From Bacteroidia bacterium (GTDB taxonomy: Bacteria; Bacteroidota; Bacteroidia; M30B66): DNA of 64,000 nt. How positions within the stretch are numbered: position 1 is the stretch's first letter; every line of letters begins with the position of its first letter. The DNA lies in the NCBI GenBank assembly GCA_965279035.1, contig OZ257142.1, positions 1,216,001 through 1,280,000 of the forward strand, given 5' to 3'. The notes below the pieces were generated by a model. The model was not told the origin of the DNA and ran no database searches. It saw only the letters and a list, made by a program, of their open reading frames with translations. The position numbers and the translations under genes were made by a program. Shown here one piece after another: positions 7,625-63,905 of the stretch.

Positions 7625-7665
7625 AGATAAAGAGCAGTGATTTACAAATCACTTTTGAAAAGTAC

Positions 7666-7819: not shown

Positions 7820-7829
7820 AACACGGGGG

Positions 7830-7837: not shown

Positions 7838-7957
7838 TTATTTTTTTTAATCCTTGAAAGGGAAAGATGATAATTCTTAGTAAAAACGTTTATTAGCTTG
7901 TTTATGAGAGGTGTTAACTCTTAGATCTTATAAAATTGTGATTAATGATTGAACAAT

Positions 7958-8701
7958 TCATTTCACAACTGGTTCAATTTTCCGTTTCGCCTTACGGCTC
8001 TTTTTTCGTTCTGGATCTTCGTGGAAAAAATATTTTAAGTCGGCAGATAAGTAGGCTCCATTGAGATTTCCTGAAACAGAATTCTGTACAATTCCTTTAT
8101 TAATGTAATCGATTGCTAAACCGTAGATCGGTCCAAAGGGGCGATTCAATGTTGCCCCAAAATAAAAATAACCACTTTTAGGTGTCCGATATTCAAAGCC
8201 AATATTTGCAAGTAGGCTAGGGGTGAAGCTATGTTTTCGTCCTGCATATACACCCAAGAAGGAATCTCGTTTAATATCATCTGAAGGGAAAATATTTAGG
8301 CAAGCACCCGCACCCGCATTCATATATATACGTTCGCTTAGTTTAATGAAAATGAGCTGACTAAATGGAATTTCGTACCCAATGATTCGAAGTTTATTTG
8401 TCGTTGTTTTTGGCCCATATGTGCCACTCACGTTGAGGTTTCTGGCTACGTAATTAATCCCGAATTCGATAGATAATGTCTTTGTATAACCTTGTCTAAT
8501 GATCATTCCTGCAACGTAGCCAGAACCTGGTTTTACAGAATAACTATAACTGCTATCATTAAAAGTTTGAGTTCCAGTACCGAAAAATGAACTCGAAAAA
8601 AGTGGCTTAATTTGAAAGCCAACAGTTTTAATTTTTTCCTGAGCCGACACCGTCAACACCAATAAAAATAAGACGATGAAAATCGAACAGAATTTTTTCA
8701 T
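7958..8701 (-). CDS. Hypothetical exported protein, probable small outer-membrane beta-barrel
   Basis: Signal peptide (VSA-Q); alternating aromatic/Gly strands (IEFGINY, IGFEY, LSADLKYFF); basic tail. Confidence 0.6.
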   Translation of the reverse strand: MKKFCSIFIVLFLLVLTVSAQEKIKTVGFQIKPLFSSSFFGTGTQTFNDSSYSYSVKPGSGYVAGMIIRQGYTKTLSIEFGINYVARNLNVSGTYGPKTTTNKLRIIGYEIPFSQLIFIKLSERIYMNAGAGACLNIFPSDDIKRDSFLGVYAGRKHSFTPSLLANIGFEYRTPKSGYFYFGATLNRPFGPIYGLAIDYINKGIVQNSVSGNLNGAYLSADLKYFFHEDPERKKSRKAKRKIEPVVK

Positions 8702-8706
8702 GTCAA

Positions 8707-48476: not shown

Positions 48477-48490
48477 TTCAGTTGAGAAAT

Positions 48491-49459
48491 ATGCAAACGT
48501 TTAAATCCGATGTTGAAGCGATTGATAGCCTCCGAGATGCATATTTGCGCCTTGATGCGGAAATAGGAAAAGTTGTTATTGGTCAAGAAGATGTTGTTAA
48601 AGATGTAATCATTTCAATTTTTAGCCGAGGACATTGCCTATTAGTTGGTGTTCCTGGATTAGCTAAAACACTTCTTGTTACAACTATTTCAAGAGTTCTT
48701 GGCTTGGATTACAATCGTATTCAGTTTACTCCCGATTTGATGCCCTCCGACATTGTTGGTACTGAAATTTTAGATGAGGATCGTCATTTCCGTTTCATTA
48801 AAGGCCCCTTGTTCGCCAATATTATTTTAGCTGATGAGATCAATAGAACTCCACCTAAAACCCAAGCGGCTTTACTCGAAGCAATGCAGGAAAAAGCAAT
48901 TACTGCTGCAGGGAAACGATATGAATTAGGACAACCCTTTTTCGTTTTAGCAACACAAAATCCAATTGAACAAGAAGGAACATATCCATTACCTGAAGCA
49001 CAATTAGACAGATTCATGTTCAATATTTGGGTGGATTATCCTAAATATGAAGATGAGTTACTCGTTGTAAAAAGCACAACTTCCGATAATAAAATAGAAT
49101 TGAAGTCAATTCTATCAGCCGAAGAAATTTTATTCTATCAAGACTTAGTTCGTCGTGTCCCAGTTACAGATAAAGTATTGGAATACGCTGTAAAATTGGC
49201 AGTTAAAACCCGTCCAAATTCTGAACATGCTCCTGATATTGTGAAGAAATACCTTGCTTGGGGAGCTGGTCCACGTGCATCTCAATTTCTTGTTTTAGGT
49301 GCAAAATGTCATGCAGCTATTCGTGGTCGTTATTCGCCCGATATTGAAGATGTTAATGCAGTTGCTACTGCAATACTTCGCCATAGAATAATTCGGAATT
49401 ACAAGGCGGAAGCTGAAGGTCTCAGTGTTGAATCGATAATCAAACAGATAATGAATTAA
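48491..49459 (+). CDS. MoxR family AAA+ ATPase
   Basis: GVPGLAKT, RIQFTPDLMPSD, LADEINRTPPKTQ, ATQNPIEQEGTYPLPEAQLDRF. Confidence 0.96.
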   Translation: MQTFKSDVEAIDSLRDAYLRLDAEIGKVVIGQEDVVKDVIISIFSRGHCLLVGVPGLAKTLLVTTISRVLGLDYNRIQFTPDLMPSDIVGTEILDEDRHFRFIKGPLFANIILADEINRTPPKTQAALLEAMQEKAITAAGKRYELGQPFFVLATQNPIEQEGTYPLPEAQLDRFMFNIWVDYPKYEDELLVVKSTTSDNKIELKSILSAEEILFYQDLVRRVPVTDKVLEYAVKLAVKTRPNSEHAPDIVKKYLAWGAGPRASQFLVLGAKCHAAIRGRYSPDIEDVNAVATAILRHRIIRNYKAEAEGLSVESIIKQIMN

Positions 49460-49461
49460 TT

Positions 49462-49491
49462 AAAAAAGCCGGATACTAACTCCGGCTTTTT
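49462..49491. terminator. Bidirectional terminator between moxR and gap
   Basis: AAAAAAGCCGGA-TACTAAC-TCCGGCTTTTT between convergent genes. Confidence 0.88.
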
Positions 49492-49537
49492 CATTTCAAC
49501 TTAATCCTTTGATAGGATTTTTAAGAATTATAGATTC

Positions 49538-51004
49538 TCAATAATAGGTCAATCGAATAACATCAGCAATGTGTTTTGCATAACGTATTACCTGACGTGT
49601 GTAGCCATATTCGTTATCGTACCAAACATACAATACAATGTTGCGTTTATCATTAGCTACGATAGTTGCAGGGCTATCTACAATGGATGCACATGGATTC
49701 CCAATCAAATCGCTTGATACCAATTCATTCGAAATCGAATATTGAATTTGTTCTACTAGATCTCCTTTTAAAGCAGCATTTCTTAAAACGCTGTTTACAT
49801 CATCTTTACTTGTATCAGTTTCAACTGTGAGTTTTAAAATCGCTAATGAAACATCGGGTGTTGGTACTCTCACAGAATTGGAAGTCAATTTACCTGCTAA
49901 TTCTGGAATTACCTTCGTTACAGCACTTCCTGCACCTGTTTCTGTAATAACCATATTCAATGCAGCAGAACGACCTCTACGGTATTTCTTATGGAAATTA
50001 TCCAATAAATTCTGATCGTTTGTATAAGAGTGAATAGTTTCGATATGACCAGTTGAAATTCCTAGATTTTTCTGAATCACTTTTAGAATTGGAACAATCG
50101 CATTGGTCGTACATGAAGCAGCTGAAAATATAGTTTCAGTTGTATGGTCGCATGATGCATGATTTACCCCATGAACAATATTAGGAATATCTCCTTTTCC
50201 TGGAGCAGTTAACAATACTTTACCAATCCCTTTCGCTTTTAAATGCTCGCTTAATCCTTCACGATCACGAGATGATCCTGTGTTGTCGATTAACAATGCA
50301 TCATGAATCCCAAATGAACTATAATCAATTTCTGCTGGATTACTTCCTGCAATCATTTTGACTGTATGTCCATTTATGATTAGTGCTTTATTTTCAAAAT
50401 CTTCGATCACAGTTCCTGGAAATGGACCATGCACTGAATCTGTTCTTAATAAAGCAGCTCTTTTACTAATATCTTCATTCGAATTGCTTCGTGTAACAAT
50501 AGCTCTTAATCGTAGTTGTTCACCTTTTCCAGCTTGTATAATTAACTCTCTTGCTGCAATTCTACCAATTCTACCAAAACCATATAAAACGATGTCTTTG
50601 GGTTTTAAAACGCGTTTGTCTTTACCTAAAAAAGAACTTAATTTATCTGAAATAAAAACAGAAGCAGATTCATAAGCTGCTTTTTCATTTAGCCATTCTG
50701 TTGCTAATCGTCCAATATCTAATCTTGCAGGTGCAATTTCAGCTGAAAGAATTTCTTTCGCTAGCAATAATGTATCTTGAATAGTAATCGGTTTTCCAAC
50801 CATATTCAACGCATAATTATGCAATTGAAGAATCTCACTCGCACTTCTATCAACTAATTGATTCCGAAAAATTACTAATTCAATACTGCGATCAAACCAT
50901 AATTCTCCAATAATATGGATGAGTTCAATTGCTGCTTTTTCATCCCTGATCCACTCATTCAGTTCGGTTTCATAGGCTGTAGCAGAACCATTTTCCTTTG
51001 ACAT
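49538..51004 (-). CDS. Glyceraldehyde-3-phosphate dehydrogenase, long form with ~130-aa N-terminal extension
   Basis: GFGRIG, SAASCTTN, HSYTNDQ, RVPT, WYDNEYGY. Confidence 0.93.
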   Translation of the reverse strand: MSKENGSATAYETELNEWIRDEKAAIELIHIIGELWFDRSIELVIFRNQLVDRSASEILQLHNYALNMVGKPITIQDTLLLAKEILSAEIAPARLDIGRLATEWLNEKAAYESASVFISDKLSSFLGKDKRVLKPKDIVLYGFGRIGRIAARELIIQAGKGEQLRLRAIVTRSNSNEDISKRAALLRTDSVHGPFPGTVIEDFENKALIINGHTVKMIAGSNPAEIDYSSFGIHDALLIDNTGSSRDREGLSEHLKAKGIGKVLLTAPGKGDIPNIVHGVNHASCDHTTETIFSAASCTTNAIVPILKVIQKNLGISTGHIETIHSYTNDQNLLDNFHKKYRRGRSAALNMVITETGAGSAVTKVIPELAGKLTSNSVRVPTPDVSLAILKLTVETDTSKDDVNSVLRNAALKGDLVEQIQYSISNELVSSDLIGNPCASIVDSPATIVANDKRNIVLYVWYDNEYGYTRQVIRYAKHIADVIRLTYY

Positions 51005-51094
51005 AGTGTTATTGTTTGAGATTTGCGACGCGAAATTATGAATTTCTACATCCTAATCACGAAAGAGTTCATCCTTTTATCAAATACCAAATAC

Positions 51095-51131
51095 AAAAAA
51101 AGCCCGTCTTTTATTATAAAGACGGGCTTTT
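51095..51131 (-). terminator. Intrinsic terminator of degP
   Basis: GCCCGTCTTT-loop-AAAGACGGGC with T7 on the minus strand. Confidence 0.88.
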
Positions 51132-51147
51132 CTATTCGCAGATATTT

Positions 51148-52590
51148 TTAAATACCCAAACCGTAATATGCTCTTGCCCCATTTGGATATAATCCTTCAA
51201 TTAGGAGGCCTTTTCTTTCGGATTTTAAAGCTTCAGTCAGGTCTTCAATCGAGTTTACAGCCTTTTCACCAATGTTGGTTATAATAAAACCTTCTCGAAT
51301 GCCGATGTTTCTTAATCTTCCTTCTCGGATATTTTGGACTCGAAGTCCATTTTGGATTTTCAGAGCACTTTTCTCATTTGAATTAATTGGAGTGAATTCA
51401 GCACCTAATTCTTCTTTTATCGACTCAGTATACCGTACTAGACGAGTATCTCCATTTTTATTTTTAAGCACAACTGAAATCTCTTTTTCACTTCCGCCTC
51501 TGTTAATGGTTAATTGAACCTTGTCTCCTGGTCTGTATCGACCTATTTGTTCTTGTAATTCAGGAACATTATTAACAGTCACATCTTGAATCTTCAAAAT
51601 AATATCTCCTTCTTTTACACCACTTTCTTCGGCGGCTCCACCTGCATTTAAACCTGAAACATACACACCTTTTAATTCAGAAATATCTTTTCTTTTACCT
51701 AAATCGGCGTTCAAGTCTTCTAAGACTACGCCTATAAATGCTCTTTGTACTTCTCCAAATTCCAAAAGATCAGCAACAACCTTTCGAACAATATTGACTG
51801 GAACTGCGAAAGAATATCCTGAATAAGATCCTGTATTAGAAGCAATAGCTGAATTTATTCCGATAAGCTCCCCATTGGCGTTTACTAATGCTCCTCCGCT
51901 ATTTCCTGGATTCACTGCGGCATCTGTTTGAATAAAGGATTCTATCGCAAATTTCTCATTTAAAATATTGATGTTTCGTCCTTTAGCACTGATGATTCCG
52001 GCTGTTACTGTAGATGTTAAACTAAAGGGATTTCCAACGGCAAGAGCCCATTCACCTACTTTTACTTGATCAGAATTTCCGTAATAAATGAATGGGAGAT
52101 TTTTAGCATCTACTTTCAACAAAGCTAAATCGGTGCTTGGATCTCGCCCAATAACTTCTGCATTATATTCACGTTTGTCATTTAAAACGATTTCAACTTT
52201 ATCTGCATTTTGAATCACATGGTTATTTGTTACGATATAACCATCTTCCGATATAATAACACCTGAACCAGATGCCATCGCTTTTTGAGCTGGTGCATCC
52301 CGGTAAGGGTTTCCAAAAAAGAAATCATAAAAAGGATCATAGCTAGCAGCTCTTCTATTATTTGTGACTGTTTTTACATGGACAACTCCATGTACTGATT
52401 GTTCTGCAGCTTGAGTTAAATCTGGGGCATTTGATAAATTGCTTCCATGAACGGATGTTTGTTGTACCGGTAAACGTTCACTTGTCAATCTTTCAAATCC
52501 ATCTGGTGATGAATAGAAAAAGTGACTGAAGCTCAATGCTGCTAAGCCCCCCACACAAGCAATTCCGAGGGTTGAAAGAAACTTTTTCAT
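51148..52590 (-). CDS. DegP/HtrA (Do family) serine protease with two PDZ domains
   Basis: GSGVII, TNNHV, DLAL, QTDAAVNPGNSGG. Confidence 0.95.
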   Translation of the reverse strand: MKKFLSTLGIACVGGLAALSFSHFFYSSPDGFERLTSERLPVQQTSVHGSNLSNAPDLTQAAEQSVHGVVHVKTVTNNRRAASYDPFYDFFFGNPYRDAPAQKAMASGSGVIISEDGYIVTNNHVIQNADKVEIVLNDKREYNAEVIGRDPSTDLALLKVDAKNLPFIYYGNSDQVKVGEWALAVGNPFSLTSTVTAGIISAKGRNINILNEKFAIESFIQTDAAVNPGNSGGALVNANGELIGINSAIASNTGSYSGYSFAVPVNIVRKVVADLLEFGEVQRAFIGVVLEDLNADLGKRKDISELKGVYVSGLNAGGAAEESGVKEGDIILKIQDVTVNNVPELQEQIGRYRPGDKVQLTINRGGSEKEISVVLKNKNGDTRLVRYTESIKEELGAEFTPINSNEKSALKIQNGLRVQNIREGRLRNIGIREGFIITNIGEKAVNSIEDLTEALKSERKGLLIEGLYPNGARAYYGLGI

Positions 52591-52795
52591 AGTAAAATTT
52601 TAGTGTTTTTTAAAATTCGCCCTCAAAAATAATGCCTTCAGATAAGTAAAACAACAATGAACATTTTGCTGTTTATCATTCATTTTGAAAGCAATTCGTT
52701 TAAGGTCTGTTTTCATTTAGGTTTGCACATGAACGGTTGAAACGAAATTCTGTTGTTTCTATTTCTAGTTTTAACCTTTATTTTGAATTGATTGA

Positions 52796-53467
52796 ATGAA
52801 AAATCAAGGTGGTAAAACAATTTTCTTTCTCAGCGGAATCTTAATTGGGATTCTTGCCGGGCTTGGATTGGTATTTATTCTCCTCAACGATATTAATCCT
52901 TTTGCAATATTTAAATCATCTGGAAATAATTCGTATGACACACTTGTCGACAAAACACAAAAAAATGAAACGACTTTAGTGAGGTCTCCAAAAAATCGTC
53001 TCGAAAAAAATACTCAACAAAATACTGAGTTCATTGATACTTCAAACTCAACTGTTCCTTTTGATTCAAATTCAAATTTAACAGATGAGCAATTGAATTC
53101 GGATGATATTATTGTCCAAAGGGATAAACTCATTGAAACGCGTGAATTGAAATTAATTCAGATTGAAAAGAATGGATCTAAAGGAAAATCCGATTCTTTA
53201 CTGAAAGTCTTTCAAGGATCTTCTTCGAATTCAATTGAATTTAGAATTGAATTCTGGAATTCTCCAATCAATTACAAAGGATATAAATTTGTCAGAAATG
53301 TTATTGTGGCTTTTGGTTTAGATACCCAAGATCCAAGCAAATTATTTCTTTTCGAAGACAAATATTATCTCAAACACGGAGCTTCGGTTTTTAAAATAAT
53401 GAATACCGAAAAATTCGAACCGTATTATAAAGTCACTGACGAGAACTTGATAAAACAATTACGTTGA
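52796..53467 (+). CDS. Hypothetical protein with N-terminal membrane anchor
   Basis: One N-terminal TM helix, polar linker, aromatic-rich C-terminal domain (EFWNSPINYKGYK); overlaps the dapF start. Confidence 0.65.
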   Translation: MKNQGGKTIFFLSGILIGILAGLGLVFILLNDINPFAIFKSSGNNSYDTLVDKTQKNETTLVRSPKNRLEKNTQQNTEFIDTSNSTVPFDSNSNLTDEQLNSDDIIVQRDKLIETRELKLIQIEKNGSKGKSDSLLKVFQGSSSNSIEFRIEFWNSPINYKGYKFVRNVIVAFGLDTQDPSKLFLFEDKYYLKHGASVFKIMNTEKFEPYYKVTDENLIKQLR

Positions 53468-54261
53468 TGCGTATTAAATTTCAAAAATACCAAGCAGCAG
53501 GAAACGATTTCATTTTAATTGATGATCGAGATCGAAAATTTGATGTTAAGAATAGCAGTCTAATTCAGACTTTGTGTCATCGCAGATTTGGAATTGGAGC
53601 CGATGGATTGATTTTATTTCGTACCGATCCTACTGTCGACTTTAGAATGATTTATTTTAATTCTGATGGATATGAAGGTTCGATGTGCGGAAATGGTGGA
53701 CGTTGTGCAGCTGCATTTGGGGCGCAGTTCTTCCCCGAAAAACATCAGTTTAGTTTTAATGCTTTTGATGGATTGCATACTGCCGAATTATTGTCCTCTA
53801 AAGGAGATGGATTTATTGTTCGACTTCAAATGCAACAAGTAGCACTACCAGAAATTATTGGAGAAGATCTCTTATTAAATACAGGTTCTCCTCACTACGT
53901 TCATTTTGTAGAAGACGCTGGAGCCATTGACGTACCAACTGAAGGTCGGACAATTCGAAATTCAACACGATTTTTACGTGAAGGAGTGAATGTTAATTTT
54001 GTTGAAGTTCATCGAGATTCACTTACTGTTAGGACCTATGAAAGAGGTGTTGAAGAAGAAACACTTTCCTGCGGAACAGGAGTAACGGCATCAGTAATTG
54101 CCGCATTTGTTCGTGGTAAAATTAGCAATCAACCGGTTCAGGTTTTTACTCGTGGAGGTGAAATGAAAGTATCTTTTAATCCTTCTCCAGAAGGCGATTT
54201 TAACGATGTCTTCCTCACTGGAGAAGCAATGCCAGTTTTTATGGGCGAGATAGAATTATGA
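53467..54261 (+). CDS. dapF: Diaminopimelate epimerase
   Basis: KY.AAGNDF, GIGADG, MCGNGGRC, GSPH, NVNF, TYERGVE.ET.SCGTG. Confidence 0.97.
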   Translation: MRIKFQKYQAAGNDFILIDDRDRKFDVKNSSLIQTLCHRRFGIGADGLILFRTDPTVDFRMIYFNSDGYEGSMCGNGGRCAAAFGAQFFPEKHQFSFNAFDGLHTAELLSSKGDGFIVRLQMQQVALPEIIGEDLLLNTGSPHYVHFVEDAGAIDVPTEGRTIRNSTRFLREGVNVNFVEVHRDSLTVRTYERGVEEETLSCGTGVTASVIAAFVRGKISNQPVQVFTRGGEMKVSFNPSPEGDFNDVFLTGEAMPVFMGEIEL

Positions 54262-54797
54262 GTTTTTCATATCCACTGAAAAATATTGTTCCTTTAGAAT
54301 TACCTCTAGATAATCATCCACATATCTTAATTCTCCATGCGGACAAACAACCTGTTCATGTTGCTTTCGTTTGGAATGAACTCTATTATTCCCTTACTTA
54401 CAAAGGTCCCGAAACAGCTATTCCTCTCTCTACTCGACTTAAATTAATTCGAATTCGTCGAATTCCTTGTCTGTGGTTAAAACTAAATCTCCCCTTAATT
54501 TCAATAAATAAAGAAAGAATTAATTCAATTTTTAATCAATATCCTCCTTTAAATAGTAGCGAAACTTGCTTAACTCCCATTTGGGATTTTCTTCAAATAG
54601 CTTATTCTATCCCCTCAGGAAAGCCACTTATTTTTGGCTTGCTTGATTCAATTGCAGAACATAAACTCTTATTACAAATTGCCTCTTTTCAATTAGATAA
54701 TATTGTTAATGGAGAATTTTCTCTGCCTTATTATTCCTCTGAAAGCGTTGAAAATAGAATCACTTTATTAGCATCTACTTTGAAAAAGAAATTCTGA
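54258..54797 (+). CDS. Hypothetical protein (possible permuted papain-like fold)
   Basis: ATGA-coupled to dapF; His in PVHVAF precedes Cys in ETCL. Confidence 0.55.
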   Translation: MSFSYPLKNIVPLELPLDNHPHILILHADKQPVHVAFVWNELYYSLTYKGPETAIPLSTRLKLIRIRRIPCLWLKLNLPLISINKERINSIFNQYPPLNSSETCLTPIWDFLQIAYSIPSGKPLIFGLLDSIAEHKLLLQIASFQLDNIVNGEFSLPYYSSESVENRITLLASTLKKKF

Positions 54798-54846
54798 TGT
54801 AACTTTTGCATCTTTATTTTACTCAAAGTTTCCCAATCCTATTTCT

Positions 54847-57800
54847 ATGAAGTTATTCTATACGTTTCTTACTTTATTCTTTTTATCAATCAGTTCAATA
54901 AATCTTAAAGCTCAAGAGGATAAATTAATTCCTCCAATAGCTCCTCGTTCATTTTGGTCAGATACCATTCATGGAGACATTCGTTTGGATGAATATCATT
55001 GGATGAGGCAGAAAACAGAACCTCAAACAATCAATCATCTCTATGCCGAAAATGGGTATTCCGACAGAGTAATGGCTGGTTCTTCATTATTAATGAAGAA
55101 AATGTTTGAAGAATTAAAAAGCCGAATTCCAGACAAAACTGAATCCTTACCATCTCGATTAAAAAAGTACCTCTATTATTCTCGATATGAATCGGGAATG
55201 GATTATCCAGTCTATTATAGAAAAGCCGATTCTTTAAATTCAACAGAGAAACTATTAATCGACTTTAATGAAATCGCAAAATCTTATAATTATTTCAATA
55301 TCGCAGCACTAGGAATTAGCCCTGACAATCAGAAAATGTATTATGGAGTTGATGGAAAAGGAGATCGAATCTTCAATCTGTATTTTAAAAATTTACAAAC
55401 TGATGCGTATTTGTCTGATACATTGAAAGGAATAAATGGTGTTTGTTGGTTAGGCAATGATGCTGTATTATATACTGTTCCAGAAGCAAATACAAAACGT
55501 TCTTTTAAAGTAATTAAACATGTTTTAGGTAGACCTTTAACCGAAGACATTCTTTTATTCGAAGAGAAGGACGTAACGTTTAATATTGGCTTATCACGTT
55601 CAGATTCAGAACGTTTTATCTTCCTTGTTAGTTCTCAAACACTTTCGGATGAAGTTTGGATTATGGACGTCCAAAACAGTGAAGCTGGATTTCGAATCAT
55701 TGAACCGCGAAGAAAAAATCATTTATATAGTTTAGAGCATTATGAAGGTGATCAATTTTACATTTTATCTGATGATAATGCTCCGAATCAAAAAATACTC
55801 ACCTGTCCAATAAATACTCCTCAACAGAAATATTGGAAAGAATTAATTCCTCATCGAAGTGATGTATTGATTGCTGGTTTTCAAATATCCAACGGGAAAA
55901 TAATTCTAACAGAACAATTCGATGCACGTCAACGTGTTGCAGTAATTGATCCTAAAGATTTATCAAAAACATATTTACCAATTCCAGAAGAACCAGCATC
56001 GGTTGGAGTAAGCGGCTATTACGAATTTAATGAACCTAAAATTCGCTATTCATTTTCCAGCAATCGATTTCCAACTGAAGTTTGGGATTATGATTTAAAT
56101 TCTGGTGAAAGAGTATTAATTCGAAGAGATACTGTGAAAGGAGGATACAATCCAGATAATTATATTTCTGAACGTATTTATGCGACTGCTTCTGATAGCA
56201 CCCAAATCCCAATAACATTAATCTATAAAAAAGGACTAAAAAAAGACGGAAATAATCCTACTTGGTTAAGCGCCTATGGTTCATATGGCAATCCTTCACT
56301 TCCAGGATTTTCAACAGGAAATTTAGCCTTATTAGATAGAGGTTTCGTGGTTGCTGAAGCTCATATTCGTGGTGGAAATGATTGTGGTCGACTTTGGTAC
56401 GAAAACGGAAAACTCCTAAAAAAGAAAAATACGTTTACTGATTTTATAGCCTGTGCAGAGAAACTAATTTCAGATGCATATACAAACCCTAAAAAATTAG
56501 CTATACAAGGCGGTAGTGCAGGAGGATTATTAATGGGAGCAGTAGTTAATATGCGTCCTGATTTATTTGCAGCTGTTGTTGCAAATGTTCCTTTTGTTGA
56601 TGTTGTAAACACAATGCTAGACCCAACATTGCCCTTAACAACCTTTGAATACGATGAATGGGGAAATCCGAATGATCCCGTTTATTATAATTACATAAAA
56701 TCCTATGCTCCTTATGAAAATGTAAAATCCCAGAATTATCCTTCGATGTTGGTTACTGGTGGTTACAATGATTCTCAAGTACCTTATTGGGAGCCAGCAA
56801 AATGGGTTGCTCGTTTAAGAGCACTTAAAACGGATTCAAACCTATTACTTCTAAAAATAAATATGGATGCCGGTCATGGCGGTAGTTCTGGGCGCTTTGG
56901 TGGACTTAAAGACCGATCATTTGAAATGGCTTTTGTTCTTCGTGCTTTAGGTGTGAAAGAGGATTATCTCACCATTAAAGGTCGTACAACCGATACGCAA
57001 GGGAACGAACTTCCTTTTGTCAATGTCTTTATTGAAGGTTCAACCATAGGAACTGCATCTAATGAAAATGGACAGTTTAGCCTTGATCTTCGGCAAAAAA
57101 ATTCTCAAAACATCGTTTTCTCATCGATTGGATTTAAAAAGAAAGTGGTCCCGATCACCTTAAAAACGGATATCAATAATTTAAAAGTAGCCCTTGAACC
57201 CGAGAATTATCAAATTAAAACGTTTGAAGTAAAAGCCAATGCAAAAGATCCTGCTTATGCGGTGATGAAAAATGCAATCAGAATGCGCAAAAGCCATCTT
57301 GAACAAGTAGATGCTTACTCTTCTGATATTTATATAAAGGGAAGCGTTCGCTTGAATGAAATCCCTAAGAAAATGCCATTCTTTATTTCGAAAGAATCTA
57401 TGCCCGATTCAAATGATTTGGGTTTAGTTTATTTATCTGAATCGGTTGCAAGATATCATGTTCGTCAACCTTCGGATTACAAAGAAGAAATGATTGCATC
57501 CAAAATAGCCGGTATGAAACAAGGCTTTAGTTGGAATCGAGTTTCTGATGTACTCTTGAATTTTTACGAAAATCTTGTTGATTTCGATTATTATGCAGAT
57601 CGTGGTTTTGTTTCTCCTGTCTCTGAATCAGCCATGTTTTATTACAAATTTAAAATGATCGGAACGTTCATAGAAAATGGGAAAACAATCAATCGAATTG
57701 CTCTAGAACCTAAACGAAAATCCGATCCATGCTTTCGTGGTGAAATCTTTATTGTGGATGATTCATGGCATATTCACAGTGTGGATATGATGCTTACAAA

Positions 57801-59394
57801 AGATGCCCAAATTCAATATGTGGATACGCTATATATCAAGCAGGAATATGTTCCTATGGAAGATAGCCTTTGGATGCCTCTATCCATGCAGCTGAAAAGT
57901 CACATTAAATTTTTTGGTTTTGGTGCAACAGATAAATCAATAGGTGTTTTTTCAAATTATAAACTTCATCCCGTATATCCGAAAAACTTTTTTGGAAATG
58001 AGGTCTTTAAAGTGGAAGATAAAGCCAATAAAAAAGACACAGTTTATTGGATTGAAACACGCCCAATGACTTTAACTCCCGAAGAAGAGCGAAACTACCG
58101 CAAAGCCGATAGCACCGAAGCTGTTCAAACGACAAAACCCTACATGGATTCTTTAGATAGAATCAACAATAAAATAAGCATTAGCAAAATGCTCATCTCT
58201 GGTCTCTCATTTCGAGATTCCTATAATAAATCAGGATTAAATATCAATCCACTCATTGCCATGGTCTCTTTTAATGCTACCGAAGGTTTGGTTTTTAAGC
58301 CTGTTGTTCAATATTATAAAGCCTATGAAGACAACCATTCCTGGTTTGTAGATGCAGAAGGTCGATATGGAGTTTCAGATAATCGATTCAAAGGTGGACT
58401 GCGTTATTGGACCATGACCAATCGGAAGAAATTTAATTGGTGGCATTTGGAAGCAGGGCGATTTGTTACTCAGTTAAACGGATCAAACCCAATTTCACCT
58501 TTAGTGAATGCAGCATATAGTTTAATCGATAAACAAAATCTAATTCGTCTTTATGATAAAACTGGTGCAACCGTCACATGGAATCGTGAAGTTGTAAATG
58601 GAATTATGCTTCAAGCTGCAGCAACATGGCAGGATCGTAAAAGTTATTCAAATAGAACAGACTACAGTTGGAGCAATAAAACACTTCAACCGTATGCATC
58701 AAACTACTCAGTAGGTTCTGATTCAATCGGAAATCAAACAAATTCTCAATTGGCTGAGATTTCAATCAAAGCGCGGTTTCGAATCAATCAGAAATATGAA
58801 TCCCGTGAGAATTTAAAAATCATCAAAGATTCTAAATGGCCTTCATTTTTTGTCGAATTATCGCAAGCCATCCCTAAAATTGCAGGTTCCGACATTCAAT
58901 ACACGCATCTTGAAGGAGCTATTGGAGATGAACTCAAATTTGGATTATTGGGAGATAGCAAATACAAAATTATTGCTGGTTGCTTTTTAGGAACATCAGG
59001 TATGCAATTCGTCGATAATCAACATTTCAATGGGAATGAGACATTTCTATTAAGAAATTTCAATTCCACCTTGCCGTTCGATTTCTTTCAGTCTTCGCTT
59101 CGTCGATTTAACGCCCTGCATTATTACTCAAACAGTACAAATAACTCTTACCTTGAAATTCATTATGAGCACCAGTTCTATAATTGGTTAACGAATAAAG
59201 TTCCATTGTTGAGAAAAACATTATTTGGAACTGTTGCTGGAGCTAATATTCTTTGGGTAGATCATCACCCATTATACTCCGAACTTTATGTAGGAGTTGA
59301 TAATATTTTGAAAGTTCTTCGGATTGATTTTGTTAGTCAATATACTCCTGGGCAAGCTTTAAAACCCTTGATACGATTTGGGTTGAAACTATAA
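54847..59394 (+). CDS. Exported fusion: oligopeptidase B (S9A) + CarboxypepD_reg-like domain + DUF5686-type outer-membrane domain
   Basis: Signal peptide; D.Y.WMR, HIRGG, GGSAGG, DSQV.YWEPAKW, AGHGG; then IKG..TD..G..LPFVNV.....GT..NENGQF...FSSIGF; then DPAY.VMK.AI, YLSES, FVSP, C-terminal RIDF...RFGLKL. Confidence 0.85.
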   Translation: MKLFYTFLTLFFLSISSINLKAQEDKLIPPIAPRSFWSDTIHGDIRLDEYHWMRQKTEPQTINHLYAENGYSDRVMAGSSLLMKKMFEELKSRIPDKTESLPSRLKKYLYYSRYESGMDYPVYYRKADSLNSTEKLLIDFNEIAKSYNYFNIAALGISPDNQKMYYGVDGKGDRIFNLYFKNLQTDAYLSDTLKGINGVCWLGNDAVLYTVPEANTKRSFKVIKHVLGRPLTEDILLFEEKDVTFNIGLSRSDSERFIFLVSSQTLSDEVWIMDVQNSEAGFRIIEPRRKNHLYSLEHYEGDQFYILSDDNAPNQKILTCPINTPQQKYWKELIPHRSDVLIAGFQISNGKIILTEQFDARQRVAVIDPKDLSKTYLPIPEEPASVGVSGYYEFNEPKIRYSFSSNRFPTEVWDYDLNSGERVLIRRDTVKGGYNPDNYISERIYATASDSTQIPITLIYKKGLKKDGNNPTWLSAYGSYGNPSLPGFSTGNLALLDRGFVVAEAHIRGGNDCGRLWYENGKLLKKKNTFTDFIACAEKLISDAYTNPKKLAIQGGSAGGLLMGAVVNMRPDLFAAVVANVPFVDVVNTMLDPTLPLTTFEYDEWGNPNDPVYYNYIKSYAPYENVKSQNYPSMLVTGGYNDSQVPYWEPAKWVARLRALKTDSNLLLLKINMDAGHGGSSGRFGGLKDRSFEMAFVLRALGVKEDYLTIKGRTTDTQGNELPFVNVFIEGSTIGTASNENGQFSLDLRQKNSQNIVFSSIGFKKKVVPITLKTDINNLKVALEPENYQIKTFEVKANAKDPAYAVMKNAIRMRKSHLEQVDAYSSDIYIKGSVRLNEIPKKMPFFISKESMPDSNDLGLVYLSESVARYHVRQPSDYKEEMIASKIAGMKQGFSWNRVSDVLLNFYENLVDFDYYADRGFVSPVSESAMFYYKFKMIGTFIENGKTINRIALEPKRKSDPCFRGEIFIVDDSWHIHSVDMMLTKDAQIQYVDTLYIKQEYVPMEDSLWMPLSMQLKSHIKFFGFGATDKSIGVFSNYKLHPVYPKNFFGNEVFKVEDKANKKDTVYWIETRPMTLTPEEERNYRKADSTEAVQTTKPYMDSLDRINNKISISKMLISGLSFRDSYNKSGLNINPLIAMVSFNATEGLVFKPVVQYYKAYEDNHSWFVDAEGRYGVSDNRFKGGLRYWTMTNRKKFNWWHLEAGRFVTQLNGSNPISPLVNAAYSLIDKQNLIRLYDKTGATVTWNREVVNGIMLQAAATWQDRKSYSNRTDYSWSNKTLQPYASNYSVGSDSIGNQTNSQLAEISIKARFRINQKYESRENLKIIKDSKWPSFFVELSQAIPKIAGSDIQYTHLEGAIGDELKFGLLGDSKYKIIAGCFLGTSGMQFVDNQHFNGNETFLLRNFNSTLPFDFFQSSLRRFNALHYYSNSTNNSYLEIHYEHQFYNWLTNKVPLLRKTLFGTVAGANILWVDHHPLYSELYVGVDNILKVLRIDFVSQYTPGQALKPLIRFGLKL

Positions 59395-59399
59395 TATGC

Positions 59400-60785
59400 T
59401 CAACGCATAAACCATTTTGCTAGTTTCAATTTCCATTTGAAAGGAGCATACCGAACAGGAATATCTGGGAAAAATCCTGTCCGCATAATGGCTTTGCGAT
59501 GAGAAAAAGTTTCGAAGCCAGCATGTCCATGGTAATTCCCCATTCCGCTCGTTCCAACTCCGCCAAATGGAAGTTCTGGATTTGTTAAATGAATAAGCAA
59601 TATGTTTACACCACCTCCTCCGAAACGAATGTTGGATAAATAAAATTCTTCGGTTTTACGGCTTTTTGTAAATATATAACACGAAAGTGGATAGGGATTT
59701 AAGCCAACTTGAGCGATAACTTCTTCCTTTTTTCGATACGGTATGATTGGTAAAATAGGTCCAAAAATTTCTTCACGCATACACATCGAATCTGCTGATA
59801 AATCAGTGATCAATGTTGGTTCGATATACAATTGACTTGCGTCTGTTTTGCCGCCATAAAGAATCTTTCCTTGCTCCAAATAAGAACTTAATACATCAAA
59901 TCGCTTTTGATTGATAATTCGTCCATACGAGCTGCTTTTTGAGGCATCATCTCCATAGAATTCTTTCACCCAATGAATATACTGCGCAACAAATTCATCA
60001 AACACATCCTCATGAACTAGTGCGTAATCAGGACCAATACACGTTTGTCCTGCATTCCAAAGTTTTCCCCAGGCAATTCGTTTTGCTGAAATAGAGATAT
60101 TGGCATCTTCAGCAATAATTACCGGACTCTTTCCACCTAATTCTAATGTAACAGGACTTAAATGTTCTGCCGCCATTTTCATCACGTCTTTTCCAACTTG
60201 GGCGCTGCCTGTAAAAAAGATATGATCAAATCGGTACTTTTTAATCAATTCAGTTCCAATCAAAGCGCCAGGACCTTGAATAACACAAACAAAGTTGCTC
60301 GGGAAAATTTCTGTGATTAGCTTTTCAACAATTTGTGCAGTTGTGGGAGCTTGATTTGAAGGTTTGATAAATGCACAATTTCCAGCGGCGATGGCACTAA
60401 TTAGAGGAGCCATCAATAACATAAATGGATAATTCCAAGGTCCAATAATTAGAACTACTCCAAGCGGATCTTTCAAAATAAAACTGGTCGAAGGAAAATG
60501 CACAAATGGTGTTGAGACATATTCTGTTTTGCTCCATTCATCTAAAGAACGGAGTGTATGACTGATCTCCATTTTTACGGTTCCAACTTCGCTCGAATAT
60601 GCTTCGTAGGCATGCTTTCCTAAATCAGCATTTAATGCTGCTAGAATTTCAGTTTCATAGGTTCCTAAAGCGGTGTATAAGGAGGAAAGCATCTCCTTTC
60701 GAAATGATATAGCTCTAGTTTTTCCGCTAAGAAAAAAGGATTGCTGAGACTTAAAAAGGGATTCGATTTGTTCGGATGAACTCAT
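59400..60785 (-). CDS. Aldehyde dehydrogenase (ALDH3-like)
   Basis: IGPWNYP, FTGS, LELGGKSP, NAGQTCI, EEIFGPIL, PFGGVG.SG.G.YHG. Confidence 0.95.
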   Translation of the reverse strand: MSSSEQIESLFKSQQSFFLSGKTRAISFRKEMLSSLYTALGTYETEILAALNADLGKHAYEAYSSEVGTVKMEISHTLRSLDEWSKTEYVSTPFVHFPSTSFILKDPLGVVLIIGPWNYPFMLLMAPLISAIAAGNCAFIKPSNQAPTTAQIVEKLITEIFPSNFVCVIQGPGALIGTELIKKYRFDHIFFTGSAQVGKDVMKMAAEHLSPVTLELGGKSPVIIAEDANISISAKRIAWGKLWNAGQTCIGPDYALVHEDVFDEFVAQYIHWVKEFYGDDASKSSSYGRIINQKRFDVLSSYLEQGKILYGGKTDASQLYIEPTLITDLSADSMCMREEIFGPILPIIPYRKKEEVIAQVGLNPYPLSCYIFTKSRKTEEFYLSNIRFGGGGVNILLIHLTNPELPFGGVGTSGMGNYHGHAGFETFSHRKAIMRTGFFPDIPVRYAPFKWKLKLAKWFMR

Positions 60786-60817
60786 GATGTAAATATGGAA
60801 CGAATCTCTTTAATTAT

Positions 60818-62377
60818 CTATTTTTTTAAATAACGAGCAACAGCTTCAGCACAATTTTGACCATCCATAGCCGCAGAAACAATTCCTCCAGCATATCCAG
60901 CACCTTCGCCACATGGGAAAAAACCTTGCATTTGAATATGCTGTAAAGTTTCTGCATCACGAGGAATTCTGACAGGTGTTGAGGTTCTTGATTCTACTGC
61001 GTGCAATAAAGCCTCGTTCGTAAAATATCCTTTCATCTTTTTCCCAAATGCAGGAAAAGCAGCCTGAAGTCTACTTGCTATGGCATGTGGTAAAACCTGA
61101 TTTAAATTCACCGATTTAATTCCCGGTTGATAGGAAGAATCGGGTAAACTAACACTGATTTTATTTTGGACAAAATCGACCATGCGTTGAGCAGGAGCAA
61201 CTTGAGTATTTCCTCCTGCAATACAAGATGCTTGTTCTATTGCTTGTTGAAATTTCATGCCTGCTAAAGCGCCAAATGCTTCATAAGGTTGCAAATCTTC
61301 GGGTTTAATTTCTACTACAATCCCTGAATTTGCAAATGGATTATTCCGTTTAGATGGCGACCAACCATTTGTAACTACTTCACCCGGAGAAGTAGCACAG
61401 GGAGCAATAATTCCTCCCGGACACATGCAAAATGAATATACACCTCGACCATTTACTTGATCAACGAGCGAGTAGGAGGAAGGCGGTAAATATTCTCCTC
61501 GTGAATCACAATGATACTGGATAGAATCAATTAGAGATTGTGGATGTTCGGCTCTAACCCCAATAGCAAATGGTTTAAATTCTAAATGAACTCCAGCTTG
61601 ATAGAGGATTTCATAAATATCTCTAGCCGAATGTCCCGTTGCAAGTATAATTGCTTGTGCTTGAACTGAACTTCCTGTTTGAGTTTTAATTCCTGTAAAG
61701 ACCTGATTCTTGAAATCAAAATCGCAAATCCGTGTATCAAAATGGATTTCTCCACCATGATTGAGAATGGTTTCTCGCATGGCAACAATAATCCCCGGTA
61801 ATTTATTTGTCCCAATATGAGGATGAGTATCAATCAGGATTTCTTCAACAGCACCATGAACAAAAAACGTATCTAGTACTGCCTTTATATTTCCTCGTTT
61901 GTTTGATCTCGTATAGAGTTTACCATCCGAATAAGTTCCTGCTCCACCTTCGCCAAAACAATAATTTGAGTCCGGATTAACTACATGGTTTTTATTTATA
62001 GCAGCTAAATCTCTTCTTCGATCTTTCACATTTTTTCCTCGTTCAAGAAGAATGGGTTTATACCCCAATTCAATCAAACGTAAAGCTGCAAAAAGCCCAG
62101 CTGGACCAGCACCTGCAATGATCACAGTTGGTGCATTCTTTACGTTTTTATAACTTGGAATTTGAATCGAACTTGAAGGAATTTCTTCATTTACATAAAC
62201 AGCTACTTTTAAATTGACAATAACTGTTCTGCTTCGCGCATCAATGGAACGACGCAATGGAATAACAAACAAGCGATCTGTTTGTGATAATTTCAATAAT
62301 GTTCGAAGATGTACTTTAAGAAGTTCTGGATCAAAACCCAGTTCAGGGCTCAGTGTTAACTGGAGTTCCTGATGCAT
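60818..62377 (-). CDS. FAD-dependent oxidoreductase
   Basis: GAGPAG, FGEGGAGTYSDGKL, HIGT, FCMCPGG, GEGAGYAGGIVSAAMDG. Confidence 0.9.
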   Translation of the reverse strand: MHQELQLTLSPELGFDPELLKVHLRTLLKLSQTDRLFVIPLRRSIDARSRTVIVNLKVAVYVNEEIPSSSIQIPSYKNVKNAPTVIIAGAGPAGLFAALRLIELGYKPILLERGKNVKDRRRDLAAINKNHVVNPDSNYCFGEGGAGTYSDGKLYTRSNKRGNIKAVLDTFFVHGAVEEILIDTHPHIGTNKLPGIIVAMRETILNHGGEIHFDTRICDFDFKNQVFTGIKTQTGSSVQAQAIILATGHSARDIYEILYQAGVHLEFKPFAIGVRAEHPQSLIDSIQYHCDSRGEYLPPSSYSLVDQVNGRGVYSFCMCPGGIIAPCATSPGEVVTNGWSPSKRNNPFANSGIVVEIKPEDLQPYEAFGALAGMKFQQAIEQASCIAGGNTQVAPAQRMVDFVQNKISVSLPDSSYQPGIKSVNLNQVLPHAIASRLQAAFPAFGKKMKGYFTNEALLHAVESRTSTPVRIPRDAETLQHIQMQGFFPCGEGAGYAGGIVSAAMDGQNCAEAVARYLKK

Positions 62378-62380
62378 AAT

Positions 62381-63121
62381 TTATTCAAATGTGATCGAAA
62401 AATAAATGGCTTTTGAATGCAAACTATTTAACCCAAGTGTATAGAGGTTATTATCTTGAACCAATAGGTTTTTCAAGCCATACGACATTTTAATTTCGGG
62501 AGTAAATTTGAAATATTGGGAATAGAAATCAAAACCAAAACCGATTTCATAATTAAAATCATTCCTTTTTAGCTTCAGAATTTTCTCACCCTTATCATCT
62601 ACCTTATCCTGTGAAGCAAGGTCAATAACTGGTTTGAAGCCTCCAATGATATAAGCTCTTCCATTATTTAATCGTGCTGATTTAAATTTCAAAAGAAGTG
62701 GAAATTCAAGGAATGTTGATTCAACACGCTTTGTTCTTGAAATAACAGAATCTTGTGAGACAAGCCGAATTTTATAATCCAAACGTTTTTCTCCAAAGGA
62801 CAGGGTTGGTAAAAAGCGAAGGTCAAAATTATCTCCAATGTGAAGATTTGAAATGATTCCTAATGTGAAACCAGCTGCGGCACCAGGTTCAATGGTTAAA
62901 ACAGAATCGATGTTTCTTAAATCCTTGATTGGTGTTGGGATAAAATTAAACGAGTTAGTTCCCAACAAAAAACCAAAGTGTATGGTTTGCTTATCGTAGT
63001 TAGGTAAATTCAATACTTTTCGCTTTTGAGCAGAAAGTGTTGAGGCAGAAAATCCTGTCAGCAAGAGCATCAACAGGAGGATTCGATTAGAGAACACTAT
63101 TTTGGTAATAGGTAGTTTCAA
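62381..63121 (-). CDS. porT: Type IX secretion / gliding motility protein PorT (SprT)
   Basis: NLPNYD...HFGFLLG, LRFLP.LSF, P.LLKFKS.R.NN, GFG.DFY..YFKF.PE.K; downstream of ubiE/menG. Confidence 0.85.
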   Translation of the reverse strand: MKLPITKIVFSNRILLLMLLLTGFSASTLSAQKRKVLNLPNYDKQTIHFGFLLGTNSFNFIPTPIKDLRNIDSVLTIEPGAAAGFTLGIISNLHIGDNFDLRFLPTLSFGEKRLDYKIRLVSQDSVISRTKRVESTFLEFPLLLKFKSARLNNGRAYIIGGFKPVIDLASQDKVDDKGEKILKLKRNDFNYEIGFGFDFYSQYFKFTPEIKMSYGLKNLLVQDNNLYTLGLNSLHSKAIYFSITFE

Positions 63122-63137
63122 CGCAAAACCGTGTAAA

Positions 63138-63860
63138 TTATTTTATTCCTGTGTACAGACTTACGATTCCGAAAGTTACACGCTTTGCTTGCAATCCTTT
63201 GAAACCACTATTCTTAGCAATGGAAAGAAATTGATCTCCTTCGGGAAATGCATTAACCGATTCGTATAAATAACGATAGGCTGCATTGTCTTTCGAAACC
63301 ACTTTCCCCCACCAAGGGCAAAAGTACCTGAAATAGAAATCATAAAGTTGCCTAATTGGAAAAATTCTTGGACGAGAAAATTCAAGAATCACCACTTTAC
63401 CTCCTGGTTTCATTACGCGTTGCATTTCGTCCAATCCTTTACTTAATGTTTCAAAATTTCGAACACCAAATGCAACGGTAATAACATCAAACGTATTCGA
63501 TTCAAAGGGTAGGTTTTCTGAATCTCCTTGCTGCAATTGAATTAATTCCTCTAAACCATTCTTCTTCACTTTAATTCTTCCAACAGCCAACATCCCTTCC
63601 GAAATATCTACTCCAACAATTGCTTTAGGTTTTAGTTTACTTGCTGCGATCGCAACATCTGCTGTACCTGTTGCAATATCTAAAAGCTTTTCAATGTGAA
63701 GTCCTTTTAATTCCTTCATCATTTTCTTTCTCCACCAAATATCAATACCAAAGGAAAGTGATCGATTTAAAAAGTCATACTTGGAAGAAATGTTATCAAA
63801 CATCTGTTCCACTTGTTTTTTCTTTGTCTCTGATGAGCCTTCGTATGGGGTAACTTTCAT
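63138..63860 (-). CDS. ubiE: Demethylmenaquinone methyltransferase (UbiE/MenG)
   Basis: MFD.I...YD.LN..LSFG.D.WWR, LDIATGT, AFGVRN, ILEFS, Y.YL.ES; start at ATG 63860. Confidence 0.95.
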   Translation of the reverse strand: MKVTPYEGSSETKKKQVEQMFDNISSKYDFLNRSLSFGIDIWWRKKMMKELKGLHIEKLLDIATGTADVAIAASKLKPKAIVGVDISEGMLAVGRIKVKKNGLEELIQLQQGDSENLPFESNTFDVITVAFGVRNFETLSKGLDEMQRVMKPGGKVVILEFSRPRIFPIRQLYDFYFRYFCPWWGKVVSKDNAAYRYLYESVNAFPEGDQFLSIAKNSGFKGLQAKRVTFGIVSLYTGIK

Positions 63861-63905
63861 GGTGAAGTGAAACATCGCCGGAGCGTGCTTTGTTCTTTGA
63901 AATTC

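Follow-up and report, generated by a model that had tools for sequence, protein, structure and literature searches.

Oligopeptidase B (OpB) and a DUF5686 module are encoded as a single polypeptide at positions 54847..59394 (+) of the 64,000-nucleotide stretch analysed here (the window; positions 1,216,001 to 1,280,000 of contig OZ257142.1, Bacteroidia bacterium assembly GCA_965279035.1). This fusion is real and conserved. The preferred reading, to which a probability of about 0.6 is given, is that the protein is one exported chain that acts as an outer-membrane-tethered periplasmic oligopeptidase specific for Arg/Lys substrates, accessory to the DUF5686 module. The attachment of an enzyme to an Omp85-like barrel is of a precedented kind; the present example is conserved and phylogenetically narrow. 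Exported peptidases of Bacteroidota decide which peptides are usable as food and which cationic peptides reach the inner membrane, and joining a peptidase covalently to a protein of the outer membrane represents a defined way to localise such activity. The larger gain is a testable domain model of DUF5686, in which a SusC-type NTE domain and a TonB-box-like strand precede a LolA-like domain and a barrel of Omp85-like fold.

The literature searched, excluding supplementary files and subscription journals, contains no description of the fusion or of the domain make-up of DUF5686. The family is rarely mentioned there, and the entry in the available part of one proteome table does not characterise it (PMC10682907). 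A reading of this DNA from sequence only (the sequence-only reading) had held that the novelty of the fusion would be lost if the architecture were already common and characterised. The architecture is indeed common in databases, where it is automatically annotated, whereas no characterising paper was found.

Architecture and conservation of the fusion

The fusion gene comprises 1515 codons and a stop, begins with ATG and is uninterrupted, in agreement with the single unbroken open reading frame (ORF) proposed by the sequence-only reading. The sole other ORF of at least 80 amino acids within its bounds is an antisense frame of 83 amino acids. Pfam places four modules in tandem, without overlap, along the protein: Peptidase_S9_N (PF02897, residues 38-426, E 3.1e-87), Peptidase_S9 (PF00326, residues 488-702, E 1.1e-66), CarbopepD_reg_2 (PF13715, residues 710-791, E 1.1e-15) and DUF5686 (PF18939, residues 806-1484, E 3.8e-200). 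The DUF5686 match, which is preceded by the CarbopepD_reg-like domain, covers profile positions 1-669 of 669 and scores 667 bits, with the cut-off at 39.2. The domain boundaries, which the sequence-only reading had wished to see checked, thus comprise a complete OpB, a CarbopepD_reg domain and a full DUF5686 in one ORF. A signal peptide is read by eye at residues 1-22 (54847..54912 (+)), with cleavage likely between LKA and QED. Of 42 fused homologues, 38 begin with a similar hydrophobic stretch, in most cases with A/S-Q after it, and the remaining four look truncated. By the same by-eye reading there is one signal peptide and no second one, as had been claimed.

The two halves are joined by a short linker (56944..56970 (+), residues 700-708) with a conserved LG[VI]KENYI-like pattern. 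It measures 8-9 residues, from the last OpB-aligned residue (699) to the first CarbopepD_reg residue (709-710). The junction block is gap-free and the linker sequence conserved in all 42 fused homologues, which are 36-75% identical to the 1515-aa protein. The direct passage of OpB into CarboxypepD_reg through a linker of a few residues is therefore upheld. A query spanning the junction (residues 600-900) retrieved 204 proteins at E <=0.001 among 1998 candidates, and the best 120 clusters were examined. Peptidase_S9 (PF00326) and DUF5686 (PF18939) occur together in 110 of these 120, which provides the count of other proteins with this architecture that had been called for. The double-domain clusters include 104 proteins of 1449-1547 aa, the window's own among them, and six shorter fragments; the remainder of the best 120 are six standalone DUF5686-type proteins and four of other architecture. 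Junction identity falls to ~45% across the set. The double-domain clusters originate from JGI, ENA, NCBI and Logan; where they have a name, it is 'oligopeptidase B', 'DUF5686 family protein' or 'prolyl oligopeptidase family serine peptidase'.

Genomic loci lead to the same architecture. In a tblastn search of species-representative genomes, the best 80 matches correspond to 78 loci, eight of which (L001-L008) reach into the DUF5686 part. All eight belong to Bacteroidota assembled from metagenomes, with the labels Flavobacteriales, Bacteroidia or Chitinophagales. The remaining 70 stop short of the DUF5686 part and are nearly all standalone OpBs. Stop-free fused frames were recovered in five of the genomes behind these loci; four have frames of 1517-1620 aa, and the fifth has one of 1262 aa that is cut by the contig end. 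In addition, Logan contigs from four sequencing runs cross positions 56000-58000 with no differences, no gap and a word depth of 112-679, which answers the suggested mapping of reads across the junction. These runs come from one sample of one study, possibly the source of the window DNA, so they exclude a local assembly error without being independent evidence. An assembly or sequencing error that joined two adjacent genes was accordingly considered and rejected, on both the comparative data and the run assemblies. Its chance is negligible given 110 clusters with both halves from independent sources, the stop-free fused frames in five other genomes and a junction that is gap-free in 42/42 homologues and identical in the four run assemblies, the shared and perhaps original sample notwithstanding.

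The peptidase half (54913..56955 (+), residues 23-703) consists of a propeller (residues 38-426) and a catalytic domain (residues 488-702). Residues 28-699 align end to end and without large gaps with residues 2-673 of 676 of the Serratia proteamaculans OpB 7ywp (E 7e-171). The next matches in the PDB are the trypanosomatid OpBs 4bp8 (E 6.8e-133) and 2xe4 (E 2.5e-126). The best prolyl endopeptidase reaches only E 1.8e-72, against 7e-171 to 2.5e-126 for OpB structures, placing the domain nearer OpB. The catalytic residues are aligned with those of the solved enzyme: Ser557 (56515..56517 (+)) in GGSAGG (nt 56509-56526), which matches the GGSAGG of 7ywp; Asp642 (56770..56772 (+)) in NDSQV; and His677 (56875..56877 (+)) in AGHGG. 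All three are invariant in 42/42 fused homologues. The earlier description of a complete S9A peptidase with an intact triad is borne out by these alignments, to the exact coordinates of GGSAGG, and the peptidase looks catalytically active from its sequence.

The acidic TTFEYDEW motif, also singled out from the sequence alone, coincides with the corresponding motif of the solved OpB: in the alignment, Glu601, Asp603 and Glu604 fall on E-Y-D-E of 7ywp, beside the S1 site. Glu604 is kept in 42/42 fused homologues, and Glu601 in 37/42, with His in the other five. Mutagenesis of the Salmonella enzyme reportedly showed that the acidic pair gives specificity for Arg/Lys, and the fused enzyme is probably specific for Arg/Lys oligopeptides on the strength of these aligned residues. 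The protein therefore resembles OpB (MEROPS S9A; PtrB/OpdB; 7ywp) in its propeller and alpha/beta-hydrolase, its Ser-Asp-His triad and its acidic motif. Unlike 7ywp-type enzymes, it has a signal peptide and is followed by ~810 residues of outer-membrane module.

A subgroup of five of the 42 fused proteins (P0057, P0066, P0078, P0084 and P0106) carries His for Glu601 and I/V-GNP for WGNP while keeping the triad. The same five also differ just before the residue-601 motif (region 594-610). Judging by these substitutions, their substrate specificity is probably altered.

Composition of the DUF5686 module

Residues 705-1515 were modelled with AlphaFold2 from an alignment with 114 standalone relatives, giving a mean predicted local distance difference test score (pLDDT) of 92.9 and a predicted template modelling score (pTM) of 0.89. 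The model contains an Ig-like domain (705-785), a long helix with long antiparallel strands (~802-1056), four helices (1065-1118) and a barrel (~1120-1515). The sequence-only reading had described ~720 aa of beta-rich sequence that end in a barrel-type last strand (IRFGLKL). A barrel is indeed predicted, in the last ~400 aa only, while the ~410 aa ahead of it form the NTE domain, the LolA-like domain and helices.

The first part of the module is a CarbopepD_reg domain of the SusC NTE type (56971..57219 (+), residues 709-791), as indicated by Pfam, profile and Foldseek searches. The family profile matches 9gbc (E 1.4e-19), SusC 8aa4 (E 9.7e-15) and the isolated NTE 9hfj (E 9e-12) in the PDB, and Foldseek superposes the domain on 9hfj with a TMt of 0.90. 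A sequence search of the PDB with the whole C-terminal half gave matches confined to this NTE-type domain. Directly after it, the DUF5686 family has the consensus L-x-E-V-V-V, which the profile aligns with NEVVV/DEVVV of 9gbc and 8aa4. The TonB box of the SusC protein Bt1763 is placed at a stretch of this type in the available text of its structural description (Gray et al., PMC7782687). In the present protein, the TonB-box-like strand falls at residues 790-797 (57214..57237 (+)). Across 115 rows, mostly from standalone proteins, its columns hold Leu in 93, Glu in 74, Val/Ile in 91, Val/Ile in 108 and Ala in 69. DUF5686 proteins may thus be TonB-dependent despite lacking a plug and a 22-strand barrel. 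Pfam found neither the plug (PF07715) nor TonB_dep_Rec (PF00593) in the protein, and TIGR04056 matched over positions 2-79 only. The likeness to SusC/RagA-type transporters is one of the NTE and the strand that follows it; unlike these transporters, DUF5686 has no plug and no 22-strand TonB_dep_Rec barrel, and the strand is degenerate in the fused protein.

The middle domain (57247..58014 (+), residues ~801-1056) makes up the first half of Pfam DUF5686 and is predicted to form an open beta-barrel of LolA/LolB type, on the evidence of AlphaFold2, Foldseek and VIA-align. A separate model of residues 800-1125 reached a pLDDT of 95.1 and a pTM of 0.90. The best VIA-align match is the 'lipoprotein-sorting protein domain' of V. 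parahaemolyticus (3bk5; Z 10.1 over 184 residues, root-mean-square deviation 5.0 A), followed by P. gingivalis LolA3 (9tp6, Z 9.8), DUF1329 (4z48, Z 9.7), NE2245 (3buu, Z 8.5) and P. gingivalis LolB (9tpm, Z 8.4). The top Foldseek matches belong to the LolA superfamily, with probability 1.00 and TM scores of 0.3-0.44. Scores similar to those of the LolA matches are also reached by ApoB and lipovitellin with their lipid-binding barrels, and no sequence similarity to LolA/LolB proteins was detected. The modelled fold is hence consistent with a LolA/LolB-like domain, with moderate agreement. As modelled, it would share an open antiparallel beta-barrel and an N-terminal helix with LolA/LolB (9tp6, 9tpm, 3bk5); unlike them, it is covalently joined to a barrel and is neither soluble nor lipid-anchored. 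A conserved helical linker follows (58039..58200 (+), residues ~1065-1118, from DSSP of the models), in which W1068, R1072, L1076, E1080, Y1084 and D1088 are invariant or near-invariant.

The C-terminal ~400 residues (58204..59391 (+), residues ~1120-1515) are modelled as a beta-barrel of Omp85-like fold. Foldseek matches in the PDB are led by BamA, Toc75, TamA and Sam50, with a best E of 9.4e-8. In VIA-align, ranks 1-18 are all Omp85-family proteins (Z 13.9-18.2), among them Toc75 (7vcf, Z 18.2), Sam50 (7btw, Z 18.1), TamA (9xdc, Z 17.7), BamA (8xnb, Z 16.7), FhaC (4ql0, Z 15.0) and CdiB (6wil, Z 14.6), whereas non-Omp85 barrels (MOMP, VDAC, Tom40 and porins) reach Z <=13.5. ESM features, with DUF5686 clusters excluded, also place clusters labelled ShlB/Omp85 nearest (0.93), which serves as a lead only. 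The count of 16 strands comes from DSSP of the model only.

A long conserved loop (58990..59148 (+), residues 1382-1434) lies where Omp85 proteins have loop L6; in the model it is flanked by strands 666-677 and 731-741, which are beta11/beta12 of 16 counted from the C-terminus. Its residues D1390, H1393, F1394, G1396, N1397, Y1426, Y1427 and S1430 are near-invariant. Loop L6 of Omp85 proteins carries a VRG[FY] motif, which is absent from the 1515-aa sequence. Near the end of the chain, Arg1510 does not vary among the fused homologues and Gly1512 hardly does. The module therefore resembles Omp85/TpsB proteins (BamA, TamA, Sam50, Toc75, FhaC) in having ~16 strands, a loop at the L6 position and modules ahead of the barrel. 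It differs in lacking POTRA domains, the Omp85 sequence signature and VRG[FY], and in that its pre-barrel part is formed by the NTE and LolA-like domains.

The composition of DUF5686, as modelled, suggests a module that handles acylated cargo at the outer membrane. In Borrelia, a LolA-like protein is encoded beside an Omp85-family protein, and the pair is proposed to form a lipoprotein export system in the part of the study available (PMC13078400). DUF5686 was also considered as the missing exporter of surface lipoproteins in Bacteroidota. This candidate was rejected, given that surface-lipoprotein export is assigned to an expanded LptD translocon in the available text of a 2026 preprint (10.64898/2026.10.03.756453), from which the words Omp85, LolA, carboxypeptidase and NTE are absent, and that LolB of Bacteroides is, according to the accessible portion of its description, a DUF4292 lipoprotein (PMC12889592). 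With both obvious lipoprotein roles assigned elsewhere, a lipid or lipoprotein role for DUF5686 is kept at low probability only.

Topology, evolutionary history and alternative readings

The linker of 8-9 residues is fixed in length and unable to cross a membrane, so OpB and the NTE domain must lie on the same side. The cassette of NTE and TonB box is periplasmic in SusC-type receptors (PMC7782687) and in Oar-type receptors (PMC6434023), as far as the available parts of these two papers describe it. In DUF5686, the LolA-like domain begins ~5 residues past the TonB-box-like strand. Modules ahead of the barrel are periplasmic in Omp85 proteins. A table in the available part of a T. forsythia vesicle proteome study labels a protein with DUF5686 and CarbopepD_reg as outer membrane (PMC10682907). 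By analogy with these systems, a periplasmic tether is the topology with the best support. The tethering of the peptidase on the periplasmic face, first put forward from the sequence alone, accordingly remains the topology favoured by the short, fixed linker and the NTE/TonB-box cassette.

Under the preferred reading, the C-terminal ~400 residues would form a 16-strand barrel in the outer membrane, and OpB, the NTE domain with its TonB-box-like strand, the LolA-like domain and the helical linker would all hang in the periplasm. The fusion would anchor OpB to the outer membrane on its periplasmic side, with a protein anchor taking the place of a lipid anchor. From there, the enzyme might cleave imported nutrient peptides or cationic antimicrobial peptides.

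The comparison with a lipid anchor stems from the standalone relatives. Enterobacterial PtrB is cytoplasmic and soluble, and the sequence-only reading had taken a stand-alone soluble enzyme as the norm. N-termini were rebuilt for 27 standalone OpB loci (among L011-L061) from Bacteroidota and neighbouring phyla and judged by eye. A lipobox-like Cys follows the hydrophobic core in 17 of them, eight look like substrates of signal peptidase I and two are ambiguous. This suggests that the standalone OpBs of these phyla are normally exported, often with the appearance of lipid anchoring. Given that 25/27 look exported, the cytoplasmic enterobacterial enzyme is the wrong baseline here, and that part of the earlier account no longer holds.

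The DUF5686 family is much larger than the fusion. Relatives of the C-terminal half number 4719 at E <=0.001 and 1015 at <=1e-30 (50%-identity representatives). The best 150 representatives include ten of fused length (>=1482 aa), and the rest measure 573-921 aa; the nearest standalone DUF5686 representatives are 37-43% identical to the fused module. Compared with standalone CarbopepD_reg + DUF5686 proteins (~820 aa), the fused module is full-length and belongs to the same clade. In the standalone proteins, the signal peptide directly precedes CarbopepD_reg, whereas in the fused ones a 680-aa peptidase lies between them. A FastTree phylogeny of 27 fused and 129 standalone modules places all 27 fused modules in one clade of 43 rows (support 100), which also includes 16 standalone proteins with their own signal peptides, such that at least four state changes are needed. 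An IQ-TREE analysis (quick, LG+G4) of the 43-row clade with eight outgroups implies five state changes, and the hypothesis that the fused modules form one clade of their own is rejected by an approximately unbiased (AU) test (p 4.8e-5, delta log-likelihood 181).

The peptidase tree resolves the two forms of the enzyme. It separates 42 fused OpBs, together with four proteins of reversed domain order, from 50 standalone OpBs by a fully supported branch (100*), making the fused OpBs a lineage distinct from the standalone ones sampled. For this tree, 55 of 70 non-fused loci were entered, five of which were dropped for internal stops, and 15 mostly partial loci were left out. Both histories are most simply read as a single fusion, after which losses or rearrangements occurred several times. 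OpB would thus have been gained once in one branch of DUF5686 and lost several times later, and would not belong to the core mechanism of DUF5686.

Since standalone DUF5686 proteins nest among fused ones, the peptidase appears dispensable for the module, and so an accessory. Prevalence leads to the same view. The junction query finds a match in 289 of 401 evenly drawn Bacteroidota genomes. Among the matches listed, which are the strongest (there are 339 weaker ones besides), the seed genome alone spans the junction, and the others cover the OpB side or the DUF5686 side, not both; a fusion confined to the seed genome among these matches again points to the peptidase as an accessory. Standalone counterparts of both halves persist alongside the fusion: all five fusion-bearing genomes searched contain DUF5686 paralogues that stand alone (787-853 aa in frames where the gene is whole) as well as separate S9A genes, with frames of 705-743 aa. 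DUF5686 is also present in the Bacteroides thetaiotaomicron control genome.

A second architecture associates OpB with part of the module. Four proteins of ~1175 aa (P0115 and P0118-P0120) comprise a signal peptide, a CarbopepD_reg domain (~25-112), ~370 aa and a complete OpB (~480-1150), and have no barrel. Their OpB groups with the fused lineage in the peptidase tree. The ~370-aa region of P0115 has no Pfam family, and hhalign to DUF5686 aligns the NTE and first helix only. Atlas returned unnamed Bacteroidota clusters for this region and also, at 0.89, a cluster in which 14% of the labels are DUF5686; the latter serves only as a lead. This architecture raises the possibility that OpB is tied to a periplasmic module led by an NTE rather than to the barrel.

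Several observations weigh against the preferred reading or against its parts. The peptidase matches the NCBIfam OpB equivalog NF007511 over its whole length at 556.7 bits, below the cut-off of 1313, and is by this measure OpB-like, yet no equivalog by the NCBI threshold. On the barrel, Pfam searches at E up to 10 gave no match to Omp85 (PF01103) or ShlB (PF03865), a PF01103 search of five fusion-bearing genomes missed their DUF5686 genes, and hhalign against an Omp85 barrel alignment, itself small and heterogeneous (12 loci of five genomes), returned a probability of 1.6%. As these Omp85 sequence tests all failed and Pfam found no POTRA family, the barrel is called Omp85-like in fold, by its modelled structure only and with no sequence support, and not a member of the superfamily. 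Its terminal residue is Leu, where most homologues have an aromatic residue. The structural match of the middle domain to LolA is moderate, with only six chains at Z >=8. The TonB-box-like strand is weaker in the fused clade (Glu at 792 in 14/42) and degenerate in the 1515-aa protein itself. The topology is inferred by analogy to SusC and Omp85 proteins, lipoboxes were judged by eye, and the group submitted to the AU test was chosen after the first tree had been seen. Finally, the fixed length and sequence of the linker could reflect a fixed docking of the two halves, a tighter coupling than the term 'accessory' implies.

A dedicated coupling, in which OpB would process a client of a DUF5686 machine, for example by trimming basic segments off an acylated protein or peptide on the LolA-like domain or by clearing peptides that pass the barrel, is the main alternative and the one to which that last point leads. 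The fusion would then report the function of DUF5686. The linker, whose length never varies and whose sequence is conserved across 42/42 homologues, fits such an arrangement, as do the invariant triad, the separation of fused OpBs from the 50 standalone ones sampled, and the reversed-order proteins, which keep an OpB of the fused lineage beside the same N-terminal module. It is nevertheless unlikely: the nested standalone proteins indicate that the module works without the peptidase, the seed genome alone carries the fusion among the matches listed from 401 genomes, no partner gene is conserved beyond close relatives, and the ~370-aa region of P0115 has no detectable similarity to DUF5686 past the NTE and first helix. 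The sequence-only reading had viewed the fusion as a Rosetta-stone clue to DUF5686, a claim weakened by the nesting, the AU rejection and the narrow prevalence. A more specific proposal is that DUF5686 is an unrecognised outer-membrane machine of Bacteroidota, linked to TonB by its SusC-type NTE/TonB-box cassette and combining an Omp85-like barrel with a LolA/LolB-like acyl-binding domain where POTRA domains would otherwise stand, whose fused OpB would process acylated peptide or lipoprotein cargo; this is decidedly unlikely.

Two further alternatives draw on Omp85 barrels with N-terminal fusions, which include PlpD (a patatin, exported by the type Vd route), 'Metallo' and WD40-like examples in the available part of a survey (Heinz and Lithgow 2014, PMC4104836). 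If the barrel worked in type Vd style, it would bring OpB to the cell surface along with the NTE and possibly the LolA-like domain, and OpB would degrade extracellular basic peptides there. The order of enzyme first and barrel last is that of PlpD, whose patatin is translocated and released (PMC4104836, as available); FhaC (Z 15.0) and CdiB (Z 14.6), both TpsB transporters, are among the structural matches of the barrel, and the ~55 helical residues ahead of it could in principle cross the lumen. However, the linker between OpB and the NTE is too short for OpB to be exported without the NTE, and the homologous cassette is periplasmic in SusC and Oar. The fused protein also differs from PlpD in having no POTRA domains (Pfam) and a passenger linker fixed at 8-9 residues. 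Most family members have no passenger (10 of the 150 best representatives are of fused length), and a folded 680-aa propeller-hydrolase would presumably be a poor substrate for a 16-strand pore. Surface display is thus very unlikely. Alternatively, the propeller-hydrolase might serve as a BamB-like binding platform and not as an enzyme, in the manner of the WD40-like propellers fused to Omp85 that have been read as BamA-BamB-like (Heinz and Lithgow, PMC4104836, as available). The invariance of Ser, Asp, His and Glu604 in 42/42 homologues at 36-75% identity indicates selection on catalysis and makes such a scaffold highly improbable.

Gene neighbourhood and related loci

The fusion is preceded by genes for MoxR, a GAPDH-like protein, a DegQ-like protein, a 223-aa ORF, DapF and a 179-aa ORF, and is followed by genes for an aldehyde dehydrogenase, an FAD protein, an outer-membrane protein barrel and UbiE. 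This gene order is common to L001 and L003-L005, partial in L002 and L006, and not found in L007 and L008. With synteny confined to close relatives and absent from L007 and L008, the neighbourhood provides no informative partner gene. Relative to window positions 48482-63875, the fusion of L001 is 76% identical, and its MoxR-like, GAPDH-like and DegQ-like proteins are 91-96% identical. By sequence comparison of L001, L004 and L005 with the window, the fusion is evolving faster than its housekeeping neighbours. No RNA data set was listed among those that contain the stretch.

Two small ORFs flank dapF, shortly upstream of the fusion. The 223-aa ORF (52796-53467 (+)), on one side of the gene, has an N-terminal hydrophobic helix. 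The 179-aa ORF (54258-54797 (+)) overlaps dapF at its stop codon, and 49 nt separate its end from the start of the fusion. No Pfam or NCBIfam family was matched by either ORF. L001, L004 and L005 carry both ORFs in synteny, though with rapid divergence: identity is 26-56%, against 66-81% for DapF.

Two of the loci recovered by tblastn have features of their own. In L075, labelled Gammaproteobacteria, the match region extends over 4.8 kb (4834-9617) for query residues 42-704, and may represent tandem OpB-like genes or a larger fusion. The metagenome-assembled genome of L003 is labelled Chitinophaga pinensis; its fusion and four neighbours are 72-87% identical to those of the window and share their synteny, which is also seen in L001 and L002, labelled Flavobacteriales, and the Chitinophaga pinensis label looks doubtful.

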